From NCBI GenBank assembly GCA_001189165.1, contig LFCO01000001.1, forward strand, positions 84,321 through 148,320: a DNA stretch of 64,000 nt, read 5' to 3'. Each line of letters begins with the position of its first letter. The stretch's first letter is position 1. Positions 4,426 to 60,851 of the stretch are shown one piece after another. The position numbers were made by a program, and so were the translations under genes. Under the pieces are notes generated by a model. The model was not told where the DNA came from, did no database searches, and saw nothing but the letters and a program-made list of their open reading frames with translations. The DNA is from Parcubacteria bacterium C7867-005 (lineage in GTDB: Bacteria; Patescibacteriota; Minisyncoccia; Phycocordibacterales; Zambryskibacteraceae).

Positions 4426-4711
4426 TTTTATTCGAGAGCAGGGAGTAGTGGGACTCGCTGTCGGATTTATCCTCGGCGGTGCGGTGTCCAAGTTGGTATC
4501 AGCCATAGTGACAGACATTGTTAATCCGCTCCTAGGCCTTGCTCTGGGTTCTGTAGCCGGACTCAAAGAAGCTTATTTTGCCGTAGGGACAGCAAAGATT
4601 ATGTATGGCGATCTCTTGGCTGTGGCTATAGATTTTGTAGTCATTGCTCTCGTAGTTTACTTTGGTGTCAAAGCTCTCAAACTCGACCAACTCGACAAAC
4701 CAAAGATATAG
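4409..4711 (+). CDS. mscL: large-conductance mechanosensitive channel
   Basis: 100 aa; MKGFIDFIREQGVVGLAVGFILGGAVSKLVSAIVTDIVNP matches the MscL N-terminus and TM1. Confidence 0.8.
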   Translation: MKGFIDFIREQGVVGLAVGFILGGAVSKLVSAIVTDIVNPLLGLALGSVAGLKEAYFAVGTAKIMYGDLLAVAIDFVVIALVVYFGVKALKLDQLDKPKI

Positions 4712-4720
4712 GCAACACGC

Positions 4721-4779
4721 TTGACTTTTTGTATATTATGTGCTAGGGTCTCGAAGGAAGTAACAGGGTTCAAACCCTG
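4721..4779 (+). promoter_or_regulatory. promoter-like TTGACT-N17-TGcTAGGGT followed by a tRNA T-arm-like hairpin (cagggTTCAAACccctg); possible mscL terminator or tRNA 3' remnant
   Basis: TTGACT at 4721-4726 and an extended -10-like tgcTAGGGT at 4741-4749, the same architecture as the promoters at 21934 and 45318. Hairpin at 4764-4779 is followed by gcccccag and a T-rich run, immediately before the GC jump at about 4800. Confidence 0.3.
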
Positions 4780-4835
4780 GCCCCCAGGATTTACTTGGTT
4801 GGGTTTGGTCTTTCACACCATGGAGGAACAAGAAG

Positions 4836-5072
4836 ATGATTTGGGTATTCCTGTTCGAGTTGGCCATATGGATCTTCGTGCCACTCATCGTGGCAACGCA
4901 GGTCATCATCCCGCTTTGGCGGGGACGGCCGACATTCCCTCTGCTTCGGCGGAGGCCGCAGGTGATCGACAAGATCGATAGGGCTCGAAGTGAGGTCAAT
5001 GACGCCGAGCTCGAACTCGTCGCACGTCGTACGGAGAAGGAAGCCGAGAAGCTTCGCGGCAAGGTCCGCTAG
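4836..5072 (+). CDS. small single-TM plus coiled-coil protein (high GC), upstream partner of the SPFH protein
   Basis: 78 aa, MIWVFLFELAIWIFVPLIVATQVII then a charged helix. GGAGGA RBS 8 nt upstream. GC about 60%. Confidence 0.5.
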   Translation: MIWVFLFELAIWIFVPLIVATQVIIPLWRGRPTFPLLRRRPQVIDKIDRARSEVNDAELELVARRTEKEAEKLRGKVR

Positions 5073-5126
5073 GGAGCCGCAGGGTAGGATCAGTAGTTCA
5101 TCCAATCACCCGTAGGAAACCAGGAG

Positions 5127-6431
5127 ATGTTCATGTCCGCTTTTGGGGAAGTTCGTTCGGAGTGGGGGCTTCGCAAGATCGTACTTGCCGTCGCTTCCGG
5201 TTTCGGAGTCATCGCGCTCATCGTCTTCGGCAGCATGCTGCTCGAGAACAACGGCGCGAGCGAGATCATGGTGGTGCAGTCGCCGCTCAGCGGTGAGTTC
5301 ACCGTCTACAAGACCCCCGGTCTCAAGATGCAGGGTGGGGGCACGATCACGCGGTACAAGCTTCGCGATCAGTTCTGGTTCTCTTCCGACCCCAGCAGGG
5401 GCAGCGGAGAGGATCAGTCGATCGAGATCCGCTTCAACGACAACGGCAGGGCACGTCTCTCGGGTTCAATCTCATGGGAGATGCCCCTCTCCGACAGCGC
5501 CATCATCCAGCTCCATCGGCAGTACGGTAGCGCCGAGGCGATCCAGCACCAGCTCATCAGCACCGTGGTCGGCAAGTCGGTCTTCTTGACCGGTCCGCTC
5601 ATGTCTTCGACGGAGTCAAACTCCACGAAGCGCAACGATCTACTCTCGCTCATCATCGATCAGATCAATCACGGCGTCTACAAGACCGAAAGCCGTGAGA
5701 CACGTGTCCAGGACGAGATGACCGGCGTGACCAAGACCGTTCGTATCACAACGCTCGTTCCGAGCACGGTCGCGGCTGATCGCGGGTACGCTCGTCAGGA
5801 GGGATCCCCCCTGGATGAGTTCAACATCCGCACCTTCAATCTCGCCATCGACCAGATTCACTACGATTCGACGGTCGAGATGCAGATCAAGCAGCAGCAG
5901 ACCGCCATCATGCAGGTTCAGACCGCTCTCGCGCAGGCGAAGACCGCCGAACAGGCGGCCATCACTGCGGAGAAGAACGGTCAGGCCGAAGCGGCGAAGG
6001 CGCGATGGGAACAGGAAGTGATCAAGGCGAGAGAAGTCACCAGCGCGGAACAGCGTCGTGAAGTCGCTCGTCTCGATGCTGAAGCGGCAGACTTTCGCAA
6101 GTTGGCGAACATCCGCGACGGTGAAGGCGAGGCTCGCAAGCGCCAGCTCATCATGAACGCCGACGGCGCACTCAGTATGAAGCTGGAAGCCTTCGTCAAG
6201 GTGAACCAGTTCTACGCCACCGCAATCCAGGGATACACAGGCAACTGGGTTCCCTCGATCGTCATGGGTTCGAGTGGTGCGAGCAGTGCACCGGGATCCG
6301 GTGCCAACGGCCTCATCGACATGTTGATGGCCAGGACCGCAAGGGATCTGGCGCTCGACTTTCGGGCGGGCCTCGGCAACGATCCAGCGCGACCGCGGGC
6401 GGCAACACCAGCCCCCCGCAGTACTCCGTAG
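5127..6431 (+). CDS. SPFH/band-7 (flotillin/stomatin-like) membrane protein, high GC
   Basis: N-terminal TM (IVLAVASGFGVIALIVFGSML), SPFH-like core and a long Q/A/E-rich coiled coil (QIKQQQTAIMQVQTALAQAKTAEQAAITAEK). GC about 62% against a 40% backbone. Alternative start at 5133. Confidence 0.65.
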   Translation: MFMSAFGEVRSEWGLRKIVLAVASGFGVIALIVFGSMLLENNGASEIMVVQSPLSGEFTVYKTPGLKMQGGGTITRYKLRDQFWFSSDPSRGSGEDQSIEIRFNDNGRARLSGSISWEMPLSDSAIIQLHRQYGSAEAIQHQLISTVVGKSVFLTGPLMSSTESNSTKRNDLLSLIIDQINHGVYKTESRETRVQDEMTGVTKTVRITTLVPSTVAADRGYARQEGSPLDEFNIRTFNLAIDQIHYDSTVEMQIKQQQTAIMQVQTALAQAKTAEQAAITAEKNGQAEAAKARWEQEVIKAREVTSAEQRREVARLDAEAADFRKLANIRDGEGEARKRQLIMNADGALSMKLEAFVKVNQFYATAIQGYTGNWVPSIVMGSSGASSAPGSGANGLIDMLMARTARDLALDFRAGLGNDPARPRAATPAPRSTP

Positions 6432-6457
6432 TCGTCCTTCCGTGATGTAGGTAGTAA

Positions 6458-6495
6458 AGAGGTGGTAGCCATTGGCTGCCACCTCTATTTTGTAT
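6458..6495 (+). terminator. rho-independent terminator after the SPFH gene
   Basis: Hairpin agaggtggtagcc-attg-gctgccacctct followed by attttgtat. Confidence 0.55.
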
Positions 6496-6534: not shown

Positions 6535-6564
6535 TGGACAGGTGAACCATAGTTCACCTATACT
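6535..6564 (+). promoter_or_regulatory. SOS promoter with LexA (Cheo-type) box: TGGACA-N18-TATACT with AGGTGAAC-CATA-GTTCACCT in the spacer
   Basis: Perfect 8-bp inverted repeat containing GAAC-N4-GTTC at 6544-6555. -35 TGGACA at 6535-6540 and -10 TATACT at 6559-6564. Lies upstream of a small ORF and lexA. Confidence 0.7.
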
Positions 6565-6590: not shown

Positions 6591-6797
6591 ATGAGCACAC
6601 AAAACGTAGAAAAAATATTGAGAAAGGAGTTAGAGACTTTGAATAACACCATCGACAAGAAGATCCTCAAAGGACTCTCTTATGCCAAAGAGGCGCGGGA
6701 ACACAAATACCTCTTGGCCAGATTACTTGAGAGGAAGAGAGCTTCCAGATTATCTTTCTTTAGTAAACTATCTTTCGTTCCCACATTCTTTCTATAA
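6591..6797 (+). CDS. small hypothetical protein between the LexA box and lexA (SOS-regulated candidate)
   Basis: 68-aa ORF with a charged N-terminus and hydrophobic C-terminus (RLSFFSKLSFVPTFFL); co-directional with lexA 10 nt downstream. Confidence 0.35.
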   Translation: MSTQNVEKILRKELETLNNTIDKKILKGLSYAKEAREHKYLLARLLERKRASRLSFFSKLSFVPTFFL

Positions 6798-6806
6798 GAT
6801 AGAGAT

Positions 6807-7373
6807 ATGAACGAAAGCCACAGGAACAAAATAGTTTCTTTCTATCAGAAAAATAAACGCATGCCCGGATATCAGGAGATCATGGGTTTGGTTGGTTTCA
6901 AGTCCAAAAATGCTGTTTATAAACTCATCAACAAACTCGTGGAAGAAGGTGTAGTTAACAAGGATTCAAGGGGCAAACTTACACCGAACAAACTTTTTGG
7001 AGAGATACCGATACTCGGTTTAGTTGAAGCGGGGTTTCCAACTTCTACTGACGAAGTTCTCACTGACACATTGTCCATAGATGATTATCTAGTCGAACAC
7101 AAAGAGGCGAGCTACTTACTCGAAGTAAAGGGGGACTCGATGATTGATGAGGGTATCAAAGAAGGGGACCTCGTACTTGTTGAACGTAAGGGAGAACCGA
7201 AAGATGGCGACATCGTAATCGCTGAAGTAGATGGCGGATGGACGATGAAATATTTCCGTAAAAGGGCAGGCAAAATATATCTCGAAGCAGCGAATAAAAA
7301 CTATAAACCAATTTATCCTAAATACGACTTCAGGGTAGCAGCAATAGTCAAAGGGGTGATTAGGAAGTACTAG
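6807..7373 (+). CDS. lexA: LexA repressor (S24 peptidase)
   Basis: N-terminal wHTH and C-terminal LLEVKGDSMIDEGIKEGDLVLV with Ser, plus a KYFRK Lys dyad. Confidence 0.85.
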   Translation: MNESHRNKIVSFYQKNKRMPGYQEIMGLVGFKSKNAVYKLINKLVEEGVVNKDSRGKLTPNKLFGEIPILGLVEAGFPTSTDEVLTDTLSIDDYLVEHKEASYLLEVKGDSMIDEGIKEGDLVLVERKGEPKDGDIVIAEVDGGWTMKYFRKRAGKIYLEAANKNYKPIYPKYDFRVAAIVKGVIRKY

Positions 7374-7413
7374 AAAAAACTCTGGGGGCTTGACTGTTAT
7401 TTATATTTATTTG

Positions 7414-7449
7414 TGGTATAATCAGACTAGATTGACACGAACGTGTCAA
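7414..7449 (+). promoter_or_regulatory. extended -10 promoter (TGgTATAAT) followed by the operator-like perfect palindrome TTGACACG-AA-CGTGTCAA
   Basis: TATAAT at 7417-7422 preceded by TGG. An 18-bp perfect inverted repeat at 7432-7449 lies between the promoter and the start of the high-GC protease gene; its half-site is shared with the repeats at 27630 and 40067. Confidence 0.45.
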
Positions 7450-7496
7450 ACGGATGGTTCTCTGACATTCAATCCAAACAAAGCGGAGGCACAGTT

Positions 7497-8888
7497 ATGC
7501 GTACCAAGCTTTCCAGCATTGGGCTGGCGGCTATGATTGCTGCCACCCTAGTCGTCTTCATCGGCTGTGGTGAGGGGACGTCTCCAGTGGAGCCGCCCCC
7601 TCCAGTAGAAGTAGTCACCGCGGTGATCGTCAGCCCGACAAGCGGGCAGGTGATCTCTTCGGGTCCGACCGTCCTGTCGGCGACCGCGCGGTCGTCGAAG
7701 ATCGGTGATATCACCGATCCGTCCAAGTATCTTTGGACGATCGACGGATCTCAAGTGGGGAACGGCATGGCCCTGTCCACGAACCTCACACCCGGTTCAC
7801 ATCAGGTGTGTGTCAGTGTCCAGGGATCGTCTGGGGCAAGTGGTAACACCTGCGTCCCACTGTCGGTCGTTCACGCACAACTCGTCGGGAAGGTGGTCGT
7901 CACAGACCTTCTTCAGGGCGAGGTCGTTCCCGTCGGTGTTCGCATCAAGCTTTTCGTCTCTGGGGCAGATACGATTTCAACCAATGTCGCTCCGGACGGA
8001 AGCTTCTCTGCGAACGTCTTCGGGTTCCTGAACAAGGACAGCATCAGCTTCATCGTCGATGCGGTGAATACCTCTTCTCGGATTTACCATCCGATGAGGG
8101 GGACGTTCGCCAAGGCTCTCGTGGAGAAGCCGGTCATTTTCATCATGACTCCACTTGCAGTCACTATCCCTAACGGCGTTTACGCCGGCAGGGTGGTTGA
8201 TATGAGGTTGAGCCGAGCGTATGTCGCCGGTGGTGACGCCCTCGGATTCTTCGATCGTCGCCCGTACGATGTTGGTGGTATTCCCATGTACAGGGTCAAG
8301 AGCCACAAGGTTCTCCCCGTACCTCTGGTGATCAGAAACGACCTCGGTGATACACCAATCACCGCGAGCGACTCTGTCGCCATGTGGGGATTCGTCACTA
8401 CGCTCGAAGATCACATCGGTCTGGATCTGTTCAGGCCGGCGATGAAGAGCGAAGAGAACGACACCCTGGGTATCGATGTGTACATGCTGTCGAACTTGGC
8501 CAAACCCGCCTTCGGTGGGTCGGACGGCATCCTCTATCCCACGCCCGGTAGCACCAGCTTGGGGAGAGGTCGCGCGACATTCAGAGGACGAGATGTCCTC
8601 CTGAATAACGGCGGCGGTGTCTTCAGACACGAACTCATCCACGTCCTTGGCTTCGACCACGGATGTGGGTTCCAAAGCATTCAGAACACCGAATGCAGTG
8701 GTGTGAGTATCGACTACACCGGCTTCGTCTCGGGGATCCCGAGTCCGTTCGATGTCGCATACGCCCGACTGATGTATGTGACGGCCGCGCTCGAGGACAA
8801 GTACAGCACCCACTTCTCCATCATGGAGAGCCATCAGGGTGAGCGAGAGCTCATGCTGGGACTCCCCAGAGAGATCGTGAGGAGATAG
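7497..8888 (+). CDS. secreted lipoprotein metzincin-type zinc metalloprotease with Ig-like and CarboxypepD_reg-like domains (high GC)
   Basis: MRTKLSSIGLAAMIAATLVVFIGC has a signal peptide plus lipobox. HELIHVLGFDH is the metzincin HExxHxxGxxH signature. GGAGG RBS before 7497. GC about 62%. The ORF track starts at 7443. Confidence 0.65.
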   Translation: MRTKLSSIGLAAMIAATLVVFIGCGEGTSPVEPPPPVEVVTAVIVSPTSGQVISSGPTVLSATARSSKIGDITDPSKYLWTIDGSQVGNGMALSTNLTPGSHQVCVSVQGSSGASGNTCVPLSVVHAQLVGKVVVTDLLQGEVVPVGVRIKLFVSGADTISTNVAPDGSFSANVFGFLNKDSISFIVDAVNTSSRIYHPMRGTFAKALVEKPVIFIMTPLAVTIPNGVYAGRVVDMRLSRAYVAGGDALGFFDRRPYDVGGIPMYRVKSHKVLPVPLVIRNDLGDTPITASDSVAMWGFVTTLEDHIGLDLFRPAMKSEENDTLGIDVYMLSNLAKPAFGGSDGILYPTPGSTSLGRGRATFRGRDVLLNNGGGVFRHELIHVLGFDHGCGFQSIQNTECSGVSIDYTGFVSGIPSPFDVAYARLMYVTAALEDKYSTHFSIMESHQGERELMLGLPREIVRR

Positions 8889-8939
8889 GGAGTTTGGATT
8901 GAATTGATAGCCCCCGCGGTACCCATCCGCGTGGAGCAT

Positions 8940-8970
8940 GGCCCCGACACCTGTCGGGGCCTCTTACTTT
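8940..8970 (+). terminator. rho-independent terminator (ggccccgacac-ctg-tcggggcc plus T-rich tail)
   Basis: Perfect 9-bp GC stem downstream of the protease stop. The stem sequence is shared with hairpins at 60264 and 32228. Confidence 0.55.
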
Positions 8971-8996
8971 ACAAATAGTCTACTATTTGCTATAAT
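8968..8996 (+). promoter_or_regulatory. sigma70-like promoter TTTACA-N17-TGcTATAAT for the DEAD-box helicase
   Basis: -35 at 8968-8973, -10 at 8991-8996 with TGc extension. A 5'UTR hairpin (cggaagagg..ccttcttccg) follows at 9060-9099. Confidence 0.5.
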
Positions 8997-21933: not shown

Positions 21934-21963
21934 TTGACAAAGTGGTATAGTTTGTGCTAGTAT
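21934..21963 (+). promoter_or_regulatory. promoter TTGACA-N18-TGcTAGTAT upstream of high-GC gene D
   Basis: -35 at 21934-21939, extended -10 at 21955-21963. Confidence 0.45.
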
Positions 21964-22018
21964 CAGAAGGAAACTGATCTTCAGTACGTCCACAACCACC
22001 CCAGACACGGAGTAGCAG

Positions 22019-22672
22019 ATGCGTTTGTTCGTGCGTTTCCTCTGCCTCGTCATGCTGATGTGCATGGTCGAGAAGAACGTGCTCGCCCAGGAGAACCCGC
22101 GGGCCATGGAACTCAAGTCGATCACCGTCGGCTCCGGCCGCGACGCGATCGCGAGCGGGATCGTCGGCACCGCGATCTTCAATTCGCGGGATGGCAAGCT
22201 GTACGGTGACTTCACCGTCCAGGCACAGCAGTCCTGGCTCACGATGGGTAGGAACTTCGGCACGAAGACCAAGGCGACCATCGGTGGCACCATCGGATAC
22301 TTCCAGGGTGCACCATTCGTCGGCCCGTATGTCTTCGTCACTCGACCGATCGCACCCAAGATCTCCAAGATCTCGGTTAGCGGTCTCTACTGGCCAGCCG
22401 TCTTCGCATGGGAGCCGAGCGAATGGAAGAACGACGGGGTGAAGAACCCCGAGCCCCTCGCCATCGGCAACTTCGGCATGGTGTCGATCGGTACGGACAG
22501 GGTGAGACTCACTTACGCCCTGCTCGACTTCATGGATGACCCGTTCAATCGACTCCCGGGGATCTCGATCTCGGCGCCGTACGCAAAGAAGATGGTCTTC
22601 AATGCGAACGCGACCTGGAATACGGTCGGTGAGGAATGGATGTTCTACATGGGGATGACCTGGTCCCGCTAG
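22019..22672 (+). CDS. signal-peptide-bearing beta-strand-rich protein resembling an outer-membrane beta-barrel (high GC)
   Basis: Signal MRLFVRFLCLVMLMCMVEKNVLA and an alternating hydrophobic pattern. GC about 60%. Confidence 0.35.
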   Translation: MRLFVRFLCLVMLMCMVEKNVLAQENPRAMELKSITVGSGRDAIASGIVGTAIFNSRDGKLYGDFTVQAQQSWLTMGRNFGTKTKATIGGTIGYFQGAPFVGPYVFVTRPIAPKISKISVSGLYWPAVFAWEPSEWKNDGVKNPEPLAIGNFGMVSIGTDRVRLTYALLDFMDDPFNRLPGISISAPYAKKMVFNANATWNTVGEEWMFYMGMTWSR

Positions 22673-22723
22673 CACAGGGGCCTTTTTGATACAAAAAGTA
22701 AGTATAAGAAGTGTGGATAACTA

Positions 22724-27629: not shown

Positions 27630-27691
27630 CCCGTGTCAACCTGCCAGGTTGACACGGGCATCACCACACGCGAGTGTGGTGATTTTGTTTT
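27630..27691 (+). repeat. tandem hairpins: palindromic element cccGTGTCAACCTGCCAGGTTGACACggg plus terminator atcaccacac-gcgag-tgtggtgat-TTTGTTTT
   Basis: Perfect 12-bp stem at 27630-27658. The core recurs at 40067-40102. The second hairpin at 27660-27683 has a T-tract. Confidence 0.6.
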
Positions 27692-32263: not shown

Positions 32264-32659
32264 CTAGTCATCGTCTCCATCATCTGGATCCCAATGATCA
32301 AGAATTCCGCGCTCCCGGAGGGGAGATGAGATCATCGGTTGTACCTGAGCTGGCTCGGTGGGGGTAAAATTCTTGGCGTTTTTGCGCTCGAACAGTACCT
32401 CGCCGGTTGCTCCCTTTACAGCCAAACGATACTCTGGCGGAACCTCATTTTCTTGGATCACGCCGTTGAGGATGCCGTCGAAGTTGATGGAAGAGGGCTT
32501 CTTACTCCTCACTTCTTTGATTCTTTCCTCGACCAGATCAGCAAGCCTGTTGGCAAGGTGATCCATTTCATCCCTAGAAAGCTCCACGGTAGCTCTCCTG
32601 GTGGGTGATGGGGTGTACTTCTGGTTCCTAATGCTATCATAAAATAACACAAAAGTCAA
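32264..32659 (-). CDS. hypothetical protein with acidic C-terminus (elevated GC)
   Basis: 131 aa ending DHWDPDDGDDD. Convergent with the ATPase; a shared hairpin ggcccctcgcttacgctcggggcc lies at 32228-32251. Confidence 0.35.
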   Translation of the reverse strand: MTFVLFYDSIRNQKYTPSPTRRATVELSRDEMDHLANRLADLVEERIKEVRSKKPSSINFDGILNGVIQENEVPPEYRLAVKGATGEVLFERKNAKNFTPTEPAQVQPMISSPLRERGILDHWDPDDGDDD

Positions 32660-40066: not shown

Positions 40067-40102
40067 CCCCGTGTCAACCTGGCAGGTTGACACACCACGG
40101 GG
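40067..40102 (+). repeat. second copy of the palindromic element ccccGTGTCAACCTGGCAGGTTGACACaccacgggg
   Basis: 22 of 23 nt identical to 27633-27655; nested inverted repeats. Confidence 0.6.
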
Positions 40103-45975: not shown

Positions 45976-46057
45976 TATTGACTATTTATATATTTTGGGT
46001 TATTATTTATAAAGGCAGTTCCGTAGTAAAACAGCAACATTACTATCACCGCCGGGG

Positions 46058-46549
46058 ATGATTAATATGGAAGAGACGACCCGCAGGTTTGTTTTCATCA
46101 GCAAGGAACCGATCTTCAGGGTCGAGTCGAGGCCGATCACGGGTCGAGTGCTACGTCAGTGGCACTCGAAGATCGATCACCACACGGCCTACTGGGCACT
46201 CATATCCGCGGACGAGGATCTCTATTCGGGAATCTTCAGCTTCAAGAACCCAAGCGCGGTGGACCTGTGGAGCTTCGGCATCAGCCAGCAACAGGTCGAC
46301 CACTTCCTCATCTACGTCGGTCATGGGATGCGGATGCAAGACGTGGTTGAACAGTTCAACCAGGCCAACATCGATCCGGCCAAGGTGACCTACGTCGTGT
46401 GCCCGTGCCAGACCATCGACGAGAAAGGGGAGTACCTCAACCTCGTCAGAAGCTGGGGCTCTCGTGCTAAGGTCATCGGCTGTGGTGTCTCGGCCATGGA
46501 GATGGGTGCTCTCATCCAGGAATACCTGGAGACGGGCGAGGTCAAGTAA
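46058..46549 (+). CDS. hypothetical protein (high GC); CPC..GCG cysteine pairs
   Basis: 163 aa, GC about 60%, GGGGA RBS. No recognised family. Confidence 0.4.
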   Translation: MINMEETTRRFVFISKEPIFRVESRPITGRVLRQWHSKIDHHTAYWALISADEDLYSGIFSFKNPSAVDLWSFGISQQQVDHFLIYVGHGMRMQDVVEQFNQANIDPAKVTYVVCPCQTIDEKGEYLNLVRSWGSRAKVIGCGVSAMEMGALIQEYLETGEVK

Positions 46550-46783
46550 GCCTCTGACCATCGGTGTAATGTTGTGTGTTCACAAAGCCTGCCTCCACTG
46601 GAGAGCGGGCTTTCTTCTTGGGGGAGAGACTTATATAAGAATAGATGAACGTCGCACAATATATCTTTGCGGTATCTAATATAGGAAGCTTTTGACCGAA
46701 CCACTTCCCCACAGGCAATTTAATTTTTTGACCCAACCCATCAAGTAGTCACAAATTAAATATTTATTTTATTTTAAATTATT

Positions 46784-48058
46784 TTAATTCACTTCCCCCA
46801 TGAATGGTATACGGGATCTATTTTTAAAATTTGTTATTTCAACACTTTTTGTTTTTTGCTCCTTTTGGTCAAAAACATCATTTTGGCCCCCGGTCGACAT
46901 CATGCTTGATCCAAGCATCAACATACCCTTGCCATACCTCTTTTTGACCTTGTCGAAGGCCTTGAACACATCGTCCCATCTGTTTATTCGTTTAAATGAC
47001 CCGAACAGGTCATTTGAGACGTGGTCTGGATCAACTAATACAGATAAAGTAACCCCAGAGGCCCTATAAAAAAGATTTGGTTCGTAGATATGTTCAAAAG
47101 TCTTTTTAATTTCTTCCAAAACTAAAGACGGATTAGAAAGAGCATTCGTCAGAGGTATTTCTTGTCTATGGTATTTGAACTCAGCTGTTTTCAAAAAATA
47201 ATGTATTTTTTTGGATGCGACACCAGCCGTCCTTGCTCGCGTACACACTTCTTCAACATTCTTTGATAATTCTCCAAAGATAGTATTTCGGTTGGTGGTC
47301 TTTGGGAAAGTTCTAGTGCTTTGGATGCTTTGCTGTTCGTCTTCGTTTTTAGTGCTATGTAGTTTGTATACAGATGTACCACGCAGTTCATGCCAAGTTT
47401 CGAGTTGTGGTAAGGATAGATTATCTTTTACCCACTCCCCGCTCTTATTTATAAAATCAAGAGCTGTTCGTATGCCTAATCTTTGGATTTTTAGAGTGGT
47501 CTGTGGACCGATACCCCAAACCTTGCCTATAGGTAGGTCGTGCAGAAATGATTCTATGTTTATAAAGTTAATGATTGTTAAGCCGTTTGGTTTTTGGTGC
47601 TTGGAGGCAATTTTGGCTAATACTTTGGTAGGGGCAATACCTATGGAGAATGTTACCCCGAGCTCTTTTTCCAATGCTTGTTGTATTTCTTTGCCTGTAT
47701 TTATTGGATCTGTCGATAAGTTAGTTATATCTGCAAAGCATTCGTCCACAGAATACTCTTCTACTGACGCTGTGTACCGCCTGACTATCTCATACATTCT
47801 GTGTGCAAATATTTTGTAGTTTTTATAATTTGAATTTACAACTATTGCTTGCGGGTACAGTTTCTTGATTTGAAATACAGGCATGCCTCTAAAGATGCCG
47901 AGGGCTTTGGCTTCTGTGTTCATGGAAGTGGCTATACCCCTTTCCATGCCCGTAACCACAGGCTTCCCTCTCAAGCTTGGATTTAAAGAGATCTCACATG
48001 AAGCAAAAAATGAATCTCCATCTACGTGTAAAATAGTTTTCTGCATTCTTACTAGCAT
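46784..48058 (-). CDS. dinB: DNA polymerase IV (Y-family)
   Basis: ILHVDGDSFFASCE, SIGIAPTKVLAKIAS and the little-finger domain. Confidence 0.85.
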   Translation of the reverse strand: MLVRMQKTILHVDGDSFFASCEISLNPSLRGKPVVTGMERGIATSMNTEAKALGIFRGMPVFQIKKLYPQAIVVNSNYKNYKIFAHRMYEIVRRYTASVEEYSVDECFADITNLSTDPINTGKEIQQALEKELGVTFSIGIAPTKVLAKIASKHQKPNGLTIINFINIESFLHDLPIGKVWGIGPQTTLKIQRLGIRTALDFINKSGEWVKDNLSLPQLETWHELRGTSVYKLHSTKNEDEQQSIQSTRTFPKTTNRNTIFGELSKNVEEVCTRARTAGVASKKIHYFLKTAEFKYHRQEIPLTNALSNPSLVLEEIKKTFEHIYEPNLFYRASGVTLSVLVDPDHVSNDLFGSFKRINRWDDVFKAFDKVKKRYGKGMLMLGSSMMSTGGQNDVFDQKEQKTKSVEITNFKNRSRIPFMGEVN

Positions 48059-48108: not shown

Positions 48109-48444
48109 TCAGAGCCTGCTGTATTCGACGTGCGCGAGGCTGAGCCGGAGCTGTATCAGGTTGCTCTTCATCCCGACGCCTCTCGCTGTCTTCTTGACCC
48201 ATGCCCCGATCTGCTGGTGCCGTTCAGCGAGGTCCTTGTTGTTCCGCCATTCTTGGAAATTGCCCGAGATGTCGATGAAGATGTCGAGTTCCCCACGGGC
48301 CGGAACCTCGATGAGAACCACGTTCTTCACCACCAGAGCCTCGATCACCGCGGTTCTGATTCCCCGCCGGAAACTCGCCATGAATCTCTTGACCTCGGCC
48401 CTCTCCTTGATCATCTCGTGGGTGTAGACCGTCACAAGCGGCAT
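48109..48444 (-). CDS. hypothetical protein, possibly tautomerase-superfamily-like (N-terminal Met-Pro); high GC
   Basis: The ORF extends to 48492. An internal start gives MPLVTVYTHEMIKERAEVKRF.., about 111 aa, beta-alpha-beta-like. The family assignment is speculative. Confidence 0.3.
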   Translation of the reverse strand: MPLVTVYTHEMIKERAEVKRFMASFRRGIRTAVIEALVVKNVVLIEVPARGELDIFIDISGNFQEWRNNKDLAERHQQIGAWVKKTARGVGMKSNLIQLRLSLAHVEYSRL

Positions 48445-48540
48445 GGAGCCCTCCTCATGGGTTTGGGGTGGTTTTGGTTCCGCCGACAACAATACTGTTT
48501 GTTTTGAATTTGGTCAATATCACTATTTTTATACTAAGAA

Positions 48541-48563
48541 AGCCGAATCACTTGGATTCGGCT
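48541..48563. terminator. hairpin agccgaatc-acttg-gattcggct plus TTTT
   Basis: Perfect 9-bp stem overlapping the stop of the zinc-ribbon micro-ORF. Confidence 0.5.
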
Positions 48564-48691
48564 TTTGGCTCTGGATGTTCGGGGGCCACGTAGCCACAAC
48601 TTCCGCACTCCAGCTTCTTCTCGTTCCAAGCCGGAGGTTTCTTGCCGCATTTCGGGCACTTCACTTCGGCCGGCGCATCATCCTCTTTCAA
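48548..48691 (-). CDS. unannotated 47-aa zinc-ribbon micro-protein (CPKCG..CGSCG), high GC
   Basis: Minus-strand TTG start with GGAGG 4 nt upstream, 19 nt after the stop of the upstream gene. Translation LKEDDAPAEVKCPKCGKKPPAWNEKKLECGSCGYVAPEHPEPKAESK. Below the 60-aa cutoff of the ORF track. Confidence 0.45.
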   Translation of the reverse strand: MKEDDAPAEVKCPKCGKKPPAWNEKKLECGSCGYVAPEHPEPKAESK

Positions 48692-48710
48692 GGGTCCTCC
48701 GCGAGTGGTG

Positions 48711-49091
48711 TCAGTACGGGTTCATGAACATGATGGCCAAATTGATGTCTCGAGAGTAATTCGGCACAGCATCAGTCCATGTCATCATCTTGCGAACCCA
48801 ACGGTTGGGTCCTTCCTTGCCGATGATGATGAAGTTCGGATTCGCCCACGACCTTCCTCGCTCATTGTGCCTCGCGGTTTTTTCCTCCGCGAACCTGATG
48901 AGCTTGCCGAGCTCTTCTTCGTTGTAGTCACCGGGGTCACCCACGATGGCGACGATGGATGACCACTCCGCATCTGACTTCGGCAGAGGCGCTTCGTGTC
49001 CAGCGAGGTTCTTCACATGGAAACGCCCGCAGGAATCCTTCGTGGCTCGCGGCAGCTTCTGTGCCGCTTCGAGCAAGGTCGCAAGTGTCAA
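48711..49091 (-). CDS. hypothetical protein (high GC), TTG start
   Basis: 126 aa; AGAGGA RBS 7 nt before the TTG. No recognised family. Confidence 0.4.
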   Translation of the reverse strand: MTLATLLEAAQKLPRATKDSCGRFHVKNLAGHEAPLPKSDAEWSSIVAIVGDPGDYNEEELGKLIRFAEEKTARHNERGRSWANPNFIIIGKEGPNRWVRKMMTWTDAVPNYSRDINLAIMFMNPY

Positions 49092-60164: not shown

Positions 60165-60263
60165 TATCTAAGTTAATACTCAATGTCTAGGCCTGTCAAC
60201 AAAACCTAAATTGAGCTATATAGGCATAAATATGTCAATTTTAAACACATTATAAAAGAATGA

Positions 60264-60291
60264 GGGCCCCGACACGCGAGTGTCGGGGCCC
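60264..60291. terminator. hairpin gggccccgacac-gcgag-tgtcggggccc downstream of the high-GC lipoprotein gene
   Basis: 11-bp GC stem sharing ggccccgacac with the 8940 terminator. Loop and flanks cacgcgagtg are shared with the 27660 hairpin. Confidence 0.5.
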
Positions 60292-60315
60292 TGTTAGTTC
60301 ATGGCTGACTGCCTA

Positions 60316-60768
60316 TCAGCCCTTGCCACCTTCGAACGGAACGATGATGACCTTGACGCTATCCTTCTGGGTCGGATCGATCCGCGATCGGAAGTGGAAC
60401 CAGCTGATTCCGATCTGACCCTCCGGGGTGAGCTCCCAGACCTCATAGTGGGTCACCGACTCCTTGTAGCCGTTGCCGATCGGGGTGACGTTCGTGTAGT
60501 TCCCCTCGGACCGCTTCATCGCCGACACGAAATCGTCGTTCGTCCTGACCATGATCACGTCGGCGTCATCCGTCGAGTTCCGCCCGATGACGGTACTCTG
60601 GATGAAGACGTACCCGTTCGTATTCACGGGCATGATCAGGGCAGGTTCGCCCGCCGAGACCGCGACTGCGATCCGCTCCTTCGGCTCTGTCGGGCTGTCA
60701 CCGCAGGCCGTGGTGGCCATGGTGACAGCAGCGAGCAAGATCACGGGCAACAAACGCAAGTACTTCAT
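60316..60768 (-). CDS. small lipoprotein (hypothetical), high GC
   Basis: MKYLRLLPVILLAAVTMATTAC has a signal peptide plus lipobox. 150 aa, GC about 60%. Confidence 0.5.
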   Translation of the reverse strand: MKYLRLLPVILLAAVTMATTACGDSPTEPKERIAVAVSAGEPALIMPVNTNGYVFIQSTVIGRNSTDDADVIMVRTNDDFVSAMKRSEGNYTNVTPIGNGYKESVTHYEVWELTPEGQIGISWFHFRSRIDPTQKDSVKVIIVPFEGGKG

Positions 60769-60851
60769 GTCAGAGCCTCCAGGCTCACGGGGTGGGTGTA
60801 CTGCGGCACTTCTACCTGAACACTAGCATATTATACCACTAATGTCAAGTA

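Follow-up and report, generated by a model that had tools for sequence, protein, structure and literature searches.

Positions 7390-8970 of a 64,000-nucleotide stretch of Parcubacteria bacterium C7867-005 (the window) constitute a single self-contained transcription unit, which encodes a lipoprotein of 463 amino acids with a metzincin-like zinc peptidase domain. The protease is acquired, surface-anchored and matrixin-like, belongs to a large unnamed family, and is served by a simple promoter. As we read the layout, an extended -10 (TGgTATAAT) would be followed by a leader of ~67 nt that opens with a 7-bp stem-loop, then by GGAGG, the 463-residue open reading frame (ORF) and a strong intrinsic terminator. 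The features of the unit are as follows:

7390-7395 (+): TTGACT, a -35-like hexamer read from the sequence, 21 nt upstream of the -10, a non-optimal spacing
7414-7422 (+): extended -10 TGgTATAAT, read from the sequence
7432-7449 (+): palindrome TTGACACG-AA-CGTGTCAA (full site TTGACACGAACGTGTCAA), built as 8+2+8
7485-7489 (+): ribosome-binding site (RBS) GGAGG, read from the sequence, 7 nt upstream of the ATG
7497-8888 (+): protease ORF, 463 amino acids, lipoprotein with a metzincin-like zinc peptidase domain
7497-7568 (+): signal peptide and lipobox (MRTKLSSIGLAAMIAATLVVFIG followed by C24), read from the translation
7614-7871 (+): Ig-like beta-sandwich, about residues 40-125 (sub-threshold Big_7 match, all-beta AlphaFold2 (AF2) model, Foldseek and PDB matches)
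7878-8165 (+): second beta-sandwich, CarboxypepD_reg-like, about residues 128-223 (AF2 model, PF13620 matches of relatives)
8193-8885 (+): metzincin-like catalytic domain, about residues 233-463 (AF2 model, Foldseek, family matches to hidden Markov models (HMMs))
8628-8660 (+): zinc-binding motif HELIHVLGFDH, residues 378-388 (H378, E379, H382, G385, H388)
8894-8931 (+): segment of the 3' untranslated region (UTR) homologous to the 3' UTR of the P0007 gene at locus L012 (local alignment, z 7.9)
8940-8970 (+): intrinsic terminator GGCCCCGACAcctGTCGGGGCC and T-rich tail, with the hairpin at 8940-8961

The TTGACT hexamer fits the CTTGACW -35 of other promoters in the window. A consensus promoter scan with 16-18 nt spacers did not pair it with the -10, nor did it list a promoter here, and TTGACT is probably not used together with the extended -10; since it stands 21 nt away, the extended -10 by itself carries the promoter call. 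Transcription is predicted to start at about 7429-7431, an unmapped position derived from the usual 6-8 nt distance to the -10. The ATG at 7497 is consistent with the deposited 463-residue protein, and the product of the ORF is identical to the NCBI hypothetical protein AB200_00575 of the same organism. A GTG at 7443, the start offered by the ORF listing, was set aside: it falls within the palindrome, and no RBS precedes it. The combination of GGAGGCA(C) and ATGCG is also found at two homologous loci, L002 and L134. At the other end of the unit, the terminator hairpin folds at -20.7 kcal/mol (z -6.5).

The lipoprotein and its zinc peptidase domain

Reading the translation by eye revealed the marks of a secreted lipoprotein: firstly, the N-terminus (MRTK...LVVFIG, then C24) has the basic n-region, hydrophobic h-region and lipobox of a signal peptide; secondly, signal peptide and lipobox conform, with C24, to the bacterial-lipoprotein pattern [LVI..][ASTVI][GAS]C; thirdly, the lipobox cysteine is retained in 5 of 6 close homologs. 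Phenylalanine at lipobox position -3 is less common, and is permitted by PROSITE PS51257. An earlier reading of the DNA, made from its letters and ORFs (the sequence-only reading), had called the product a lipoprotein, and the signal peptide running to VFIG-C24 agrees with it. The protein would thus be exported and lipid-anchored via Cys24 at the cell surface.

The same reading had named an exact HExxHxxGxxH motif, which is indeed present as HELIHVLGFDH and matches the metzincin signature HExxHxxGxxH/D. Its assignment of the protein to the metzincins, and its proposal to check this with peptidase M10/M12 HMMs, fared differently at two levels. Scanned directly, the protein matched only Big_7 in Pfam (E 0.009, below the cut-off), with no peptidase or CarboxypepD_reg HMM; the NCBIfam scan returned nothing; and Peptidase_M10 (PF00413) gave no match at E <= 0.1, and hence none at the gathering threshold. 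Judged on these scans by the refuting condition of the sequence-only reading, absence of a metzincin HMM match, the assignment would fall. At the level of the family, of a profile search of the PDB and of a structural model, the assignment stood.

A word-indexed homolog search found 6 relatives, and an exhaustive HMMER search with their profile retrieved 584 cluster representatives at E <= 1e-3 (229 at E <= 1e-30). Aligning 103 family members revealed that H378, E379, H382, G385 and H388 are each kept in 98-100 of them, with the consensus HELxHxLGFGHTCxWxSxM at the zinc site. When these 103 were scanned singly, 24 matched Peptidase_M10 (best E 7.7e-7), 16 matched Reprolysin_5, and 13 matched CarboxypepD_reg (PF13620) in the region homologous to the second beta-sandwich. 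The link of the protease itself to PF00413 runs through these relatives and is transitive only. Moreover, a PDB search with the family profile found MMP-12 (E 0.003, across about 100 residues), and the remaining peptidase matches were all metzincins.

With 6 sequences as input, the full-length AF2 model came out mediocre (mean predicted local distance difference test, pLDDT, 68.7), and its Foldseek matches are dominated by Ig domains. It contains two beta-sandwiches, at about residues 40-125 and 128-223, in agreement with the Ig-like and CarboxypepD_reg-like calls; the Ig-like region has Foldseek and PDB matches to Ig/Big_2 domains. The sequence-only reading had proposed both domain types: the beta-sandwiches of the model and the matches of relatives speak for them, but the Big_7 match is below threshold, CarboxypepD_reg has no direct match, and for this protein the Ig-like assignment is weak.

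Re-modelling the C-terminal domain (residues 225-463) on the 103-sequence alignment gave a pLDDT of 94.1 and a predicted template modelling (TM) score of 0.92. This model fits the metzincin fold (a beta-sheet plus helices A, B and C, with HExxH on helix B): its HExxH is located on helix 146-159 of the modelled fragment. Its best Foldseek matches in the PDB are snapalysin, the matrix metalloproteinases MMP-3/7/8/12/13, karilysin and BMP-1, at probability about 1.0; nearly all of the 50 best matches are metzincin catalytic domains (probability 0.9-1.0, target-normalised TM 0.5-0.71, E about 1e-3), with snapalysin reaching a target-normalised TM of 0.71.

Several observations weigh against this assignment. 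No peptidase HMM matches the protein itself in direct Pfam and NCBIfam scans, and the Foldseek E-values for the C-terminal model are only about 1e-3. In the Met-turn column, 8 residues after the third histidine, 67 of the 103 family members have Met and 9 have Gln; this protein has Gln396, as do its homologs P0002 and P0003, and an alignment of close homologs revealed no further invariant Met downstream. Since the Met-turn Met is absent, protease activity is not guaranteed. The Met of the family consensus is spaced as in the MMPs. A cysteine-switch propeptide (PRCGxPD) was not seen on reading the 463-residue translation, in which two beta-sandwiches precede the catalytic domain.

Together, these data identify the protein as a divergent metzincin-like, matrixin-related lipoprotein that is not filed in M10, a call made from family-level and structural evidence and not from a direct HMM match. 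The three zinc-binding histidines and the catalytic glutamate are intact, with Gln in place of the Met-turn Met, and the two beta-sandwiches would act as spacer or binding domains ahead of the zinc endopeptidase domain. The enzyme most likely cuts extracellular or neighbour-cell-surface proteins, an activity that would suit a nutritionally dependent cell of the candidate phyla radiation (CPR).

Composition and origin of the protease gene

The protease gene has 57.8% GC and 69.8% GC at third codon positions (GC3). The backbone of the window has about 43% GC, its genes lie at 39-48% with GC3 mostly 35-50% (about 40%; 40+ backbone genes), and the contrast matches the borders of the protease gene exactly. 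The sequence-only reading had described a foreign-looking gene at about 62% GC; the gene is foreign, but that figure is too high, as only the first ~200 nt reach 63%. It had also called the upstream region AT-rich, which positions 7300-7499, at 38.5% GC, bear out. Homologs elsewhere compare with their own surroundings as follows:

L002 (P0002, a Saccharibacteria metagenome-assembled genome (MAG)): gene 55% GC, surroundings 41%
L009 (P0003): gene 50% GC, surroundings 38%
L012 (P0007): gene about 54% GC, surroundings 30-45%
L133 (P0008): gene 51% GC, surroundings 42%
L006 (P0005): gene 49% GC, surroundings 41%
L010 (P0004): gene 58% GC, surroundings 61%
L134 (P0010): gene 56% GC, surroundings 64%

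At L010 and L134, both in high-GC hosts, the protease gene is GC-poorer than its surroundings; the subfamily thus keeps an intermediate composition whatever the host (49-58% GC across hosts of 38-64% GC). In a neighbour-joining tree, CPR-borne and high-GC-borne members are interleaved, and the amino-acid make-up of the wider family is like that of high-GC organisms (median GARP 35%, FYMINK 14%).

The surroundings of two homologs are informative. At L012 (Saccharibacteria MAG CAYHDI010000001.1), the P0007 gene lies with its promoter and terminator inside a 1751-bp unit between perfect 71-nt direct repeats (L012:2690-2760 and 4441-4511), which looks like a recent site-specific insertion or target duplication. 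At L134:2402-5230 (GCA_031401495.1, 64% GC), the P0010 gene stands on the opposite strand between rplS and trmD-rimM-rpsP-ffh, in what is normally a conserved ribosomal gene cluster. The RBS and start of P0010, ggaggcagttATGCGC, resemble those in the window, ggaggcacagttATGCGT. Moreover, 38 nt past the stop codon of the window's protease are homologous to the L012 3' UTR (z 7.9 against shuffles). A profile-built search for related loci returned only two, both in Saccharibacteria. Assembly chimerism was rejected as the source of such GC islands, which are gene-exact and carry their own promoters and terminators, the same contig having been recovered five times. A foreign origin of the protease gene is well supported. 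In our reading the coding region and 3' UTR were acquired horizontally, as members of a subfamily that moves between CPR and unrelated higher-GC bacteria.

The origin of the promoter is another matter. The upstream regions of L002, L012 and L009 are mutually homologous (z 4.7-6.5). Aligning the window's upstream region with that of each homolog gave no significant similarity (z <= 1.8). A cassette-borne promoter, which holds among L002, L012 and L009, was accordingly dropped for the window. Of the backbone promoter that the sequence-only reading had proposed, the TGgTATAAT at 7414-7422 is real and is followed by the palindrome as described; on its provenance the comparison with homologs speaks neither way.

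Two further observations concern the homologous loci. At L002:3078-7791 and L133:190-6199 the protease homolog adjoins a common gene set: a protein of ~730-750 residues, one of ~170-207 residues, a type IV pilus/type II secretion system ATPase (T2SSE), TIM and PGK. This set, absent from the window, hints at a tie of the protease to a pilus or surface locus. In addition, the 5' leaders of homologs (L009, L012, L002, L133) have in common a short motif, (A)CATTCAA(T/C), about 20-40 nt before the RBS; the window has a copy, CATTCAATC, at 7470-7478, and pairwise tests involving the window were non-significant.

The palindrome at the head of the leader

The sequence-only reading had seen a perfect 18-bp operator-like palindrome just downstream of the -10. 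A palindrome does lie at 7432-7449, but its central AA is not self-complementary, which leaves 16 of 18 positions symmetric. It is unique in the window even at 3 mismatches (0.04 expected). Perfect-arm palindromes (>= 8 bp) are 2.5-fold enriched in the window as a whole (25 seen against 9.8 +/- 2.8 in shuffles), and the chance of one with 8-bp arms falling in the 75-nt protease leader is about 0.01-0.03. The palindrome is more than chance.

As RNA, it would form a 7-bp stem (7432-7438 with 7443-7449) closed by a GAAC loop, at -8.1 kcal/mol (z -2.8). Rfam gave no match in the leader, and one tRNA only in the whole window. The stem starts 10 nt past the -10, and thus 1-3 nt from the predicted 5' end. 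A 5'-proximal hairpin of differing sequence lies 8-13 nt past the -10 in 4 of 5 homologous AT-rich loci, and the first 42 nt of their leaders, compared with shuffles, gave p = 0.03 (L002), 0.008 (L012), 0.05 (L009) and <0.002 (L006). The L002 leader has an 8-bp stem; at L012 a 6-bp stem carries a GAAA loop and includes one G.U pair, which makes it an RNA hairpin and not a DNA palindrome. Comparing the stems of L002 (TGGCACG-TC-CGTGCCA) and the window (TGACACG-AA-CGTGTCA) revealed matches at 6 of 7 half-site positions and one compensatory A:T to G:C change. Since position and structure are conserved and sequence is not, a role in RNA is favoured, and the palindrome is most likely a 5' mRNA stem-loop. 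Hairpins at the very 5' end of an mRNA are best known for guarding it against 5'-end-dependent decay, as they do in the ompA, aprE and ermC leaders, and a 5'-terminal stem-loop here would shield the mRNA in the same manner. The explanation taken whole, an acquired surface protease unit whose leader stem-loop is unlinked to the repeats at 27630 and 40071, seems to us somewhat more probable than its negation.

The stem-loop reading has to contend with a number of points. The L133 leader has no hairpin, and homology between the L002 and window hairpins rests on the 6/7 half-site match, roughly p = 0.01 by our own estimate. Over its full 73 nt, the window leader does not exceed shuffles in stability (z -0.32), and its first 42 nt reach only p = 0.09. 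The protease transcription start is a prediction, and those of the homologs were chosen by eye. Furthermore, the symmetric double change between L002 and the window also fits a DNA operator, and a DNA palindrome just past the -10 sits in the classic place for a repressor to bind.

The main rival, and a serious one even if we think it unlikely, therefore takes the palindrome as a DNA operator: a dimeric repressor, not encoded beside the gene, would bind TTGACACG-AA-CGTGTCAA at about +3 to +20 and block RNA polymerase. A near-perfect 18-bp dyad directly 3' of the -10 and unique in the window is what such a repressor would use; both neighbouring promoters carry palindromes between or near their hexamers (6540-6559, 8972-8989), and the L002 homolog has a related dyad at equal distance with a symmetric change. 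On the other side, the 64 kb hold no second site, and no regulator is adjacent but LexA, whose box is GAAC-N4-GTTC. The hairpins of the homologs are moreover unrelated in sequence at the same place, one of them having a G.U pair at the cost of DNA symmetry; RNA structure accounts for this better than a conserved protein site does.

Rather improbable, in our estimate, is a functionless palindrome, a relic or accidental inverted repeat in an AT-rich intergenic spacer. Chance would give about 10 palindromes as good as this one in 64 kb, the leader taken whole shows no unusual structure, and the upstream region is not conserved with homologs. Against this stand the low chance of falling within the 75-nt leader (about 0.01-0.03) and a position relative to the -10 that recurs in four homologous loci.

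Two minor roles were also considered for the palindrome and rejected. As a lexA terminator it lacks a T-tract, and the genome uses canonical terminators with a GC stem and T-run. The TTGACA inside it, taken as a second -35, has no usable -10 at 16-18 nt.

Repeats, neighbouring genes and known systems

Outside the protease unit, the following features of the window bear on its interpretation:

6540-6559 (+): AGGTGAAC-CATA-GTTCACCT, a perfect 20-bp dyad between the -35 and -10 of the small-ORF/lexA operon
6591-6797: ORF of 68 amino acids, of unknown function, first in the lexA operon and followed by lexA
6807-7373 (+): lexA (TIGR00498 equivalog, 121 bits against a cut-off of 110.95; Peptidase_S24)
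27630-27658 (no strand assigned): hairpin CCCGTGTCAACCTG-C-CAGGTTGACACGGG, like repetitive extragenic palindromic (REP) elements
40071-40093 (no strand assigned): REP-like element GTGTCAACCTG-G-CAGGTTGACAC, just past the stop codon of the L9 ribosomal protein gene
4721-6486, 21934-22700, 45978-46620, 48109-49091 (-), 60263-60850 (-), 32264-32659 (-): GC-rich islands

The two REP-like elements share a conserved core, GTCAACCTGSCAGGTTGAC. Exact copies of it are present in at least 120 metagenome contigs, mostly groundwater-type and CPR-like with about 41% GC; one copy lies just downstream of the protease homolog at L006. Among 134 distinct core copies, the flanking 3-6 nt vary yet remain mutually complementary (aaactt/aagttt, aaggt/acctt, ccc/ggg), so the element is a hairpin with a covarying stem base. 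In 43 of the 120 contigs listed (loci L013-L132; for example L029:8987-10487), a gene of ~225 codons (L029:9001-9681 in that example) has the core beside it at one end or both, about 5-50 nt away. The product of this gene contains an HxH motif and matches Y1_Tnp (IS200-like) weakly (E 0.0027, below the Pfam cut-off). Translated in frame, the core encodes VNL[AP]G-stop, and neighbouring ORFs often end inside it. No gene homologous to this putative REP-associated tyrosine transposase (RAYT) was found inside the 64-kb window. We assign the repeats at 27630 and 40071, as REP-like elements, to a RAYT-like transposase system of CPR-like genomes. In the literature searched we found no paper tying RAYTs to CPR or describing this REP-like element.

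The sequence-only reading had placed these two repeats, at 27630 and 40067, together with the palindrome at 7432 under one DNA-binding factor or repeat family with a shared half-site. We consider this very improbable. The 7-mer TTGACAC is present in all three sites, and by eye AGaTTGACAC / GTGTCAAaCgG near 7432 resembles the repeats' outer halves (AGGTTGACAC / GTGTCAACCTG) at 9/10 and 9/11 positions. However, the 8-mer GTTGACAC occurs in the two repeats only, the preceding base at 7432 being A. TTGACAC itself is at chance frequency in the window (10 seen against 8.0 expected), and the four copies outside the three palindromes all lie in coding sequence; random occurrence, coding regions included, is what the sequence-only reading had named as refuting its proposal. 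TTGACA is also the -35 consensus. Orientation and spacing are opposite, with TTGACAC-N4-GTGTCAA at 7432 against GTGTCAAC-N7-GTTGACAC in the repeats. Moreover, GTCAACCTGSCAGGTTGAC does not include the 'AC/GT' that completes the 7-mer; this falls in the variable, covarying part of the repeats. Searching the window for GTCAACCTGSCAGGTTGAC at up to 3 mismatches returned the two known copies only, and 7432 is not a member; nor did 827 kb of contigs with the repeat family contain TTGACAC-N-GTGTCAA or GGTTGAC-N-GTCAACC. The repeats are accounted for by the REP/RAYT-like system. We therefore reject the shared factor and regard the resemblance as coincidental: neither function nor ancestry connects the palindrome at 7432 with the hairpins at 27630 and 40071.

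Least probable of all is that the palindrome is an SOS (LexA) box, or that LexA from upstream controls the protease through it: lexA does lie directly upstream on the same strand with no terminator-like site between (7373-7432), and the palindrome centre contains CGAACG, but there is one GAAC only, without a GTTC partner, and nothing near 7432 resembles, even at 3 mismatches, the perfect GAAC-N4-GTTC of the lexA operon promoter. That box, at 6544-6555, is the only exact match in the window and corresponds to the Gram-positive-type (Cheo-type) LexA box; judging from the lexA operon's own dyad, 6540-6559 is likely a LexA operator unrelated to the palindrome at 7432. Because lexA has no terminator of its own, SOS-driven read-through from its promoter into the protease is possible, and would not involve the palindrome. 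Downstream of the protease lies a DEAD-box helicase gene, in whose promoter a palindrome, CAAATAGT-CT-ACTATTTG at 8972-8989, occupies the spacer between TTTACA (-35) and TATAAT (-10); it looks like an operator. Elsewhere in the window, a Y-family (DinB/ImpB-type) DNA polymerase gene at 46784-48058 (-) lies directly downstream of GC-rich ORFans on the minus strand, and no GAAC-N4-GTTC box was found near it.

At least six more gene-sized islands, with 56-61% GC and GC3 of up to 85%, stand in the 43% GC backbone. Most have a near-consensus promoter of the type CTTGACW-N17-TGCTAGTAT, several have their own GC-rich terminator, and their products are an SPFH-domain protein and ORFans without a Pfam match. 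The protease terminator (8940-8961) and the island terminator at 60263-60292 have the arm GGCCCCGACAC in common, with similar T-rich tails; this arm was matched 5 times where 0.36 matches were expected, and a count of 5 was attained in 0 of 100 shuffles. The shared arm could come from a common donor or be a second small repeat family. We hold it doubtful, though worth stating, that the protease gene, together with leader hairpin, 3' UTR and terminator, makes up a single-gene expression module, one of many that CPR bacteria exchange, via site-specific insertion, among themselves and with higher-GC bacteria, possibly hosts. If so, the 71-nt direct repeats of L012 and the shared terminator arm would be traces of the insertion mechanism, and the protease would be part of a mobile surface-protein repertoire for an epibiotic lifestyle.

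CPR bacteria (Patescibacteria) are believed to make their living on or from other cells, and most of their surface proteins lack annotation. Neither Pfam nor NCBIfam has a model for this family of lipid-anchored, matrixin-like zinc proteases, which numbers about 580 clusters, and the protease described here is a concrete candidate for studies of cell-surface or host-interaction proteolysis. The regulatory claim that drew attention to the locus reduces to an ordinary leader hairpin. The REP/RAYT-like system in CPR-like contigs, a by-product that explains the other two palindromes, may exceed the protease in interest, and together with the many GC-rich single-gene islands it is the more unusual finding.

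Set beside the REP/RAYT systems of Proteobacteria, the repeats at 27630 and 40071 are alike in being intergenic and hairpin-forming, with conservation at the apex and covariation at the base of the stem, and in having copies that flank a Y1-transposase-like gene. They differ in their setting, CPR-like groundwater-type contigs, in the sub-threshold Y1_Tnp match, and in the lack of a RAYT gene in the window.

The protease leader in turn resembles those of Escherichia coli ompA and Bacillus subtilis aprE/ermC: a short, stable predicted hairpin lies within a few nucleotides of the predicted 5' end, the leader precedes a strong RBS, and the position of the hairpin is kept across homologs while its sequence is not. 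In the protease leader the start is a predicted one, and stabilisation of the mRNA a putative role.

The protein itself compares most closely with the matrixins (MEROPS M10A, including karilysin of Tannerella forsythia) and with snapalysin (M7). It has their HExxHxxGxxH zinc site and a catalytic-domain fold closest to snapalysin, the MMPs and karilysin, and its relatives match PF00413. It departs from them in having no direct HMM match, no visible PRCGxPD and Gln at the Met-turn, while its family is marked by an HTCxW signature and by DVAY, a conserved motif in a helix; moreover, the protease is lipid-anchored and bears Ig-like and CarboxypepD_reg-like domains at its N-terminus.

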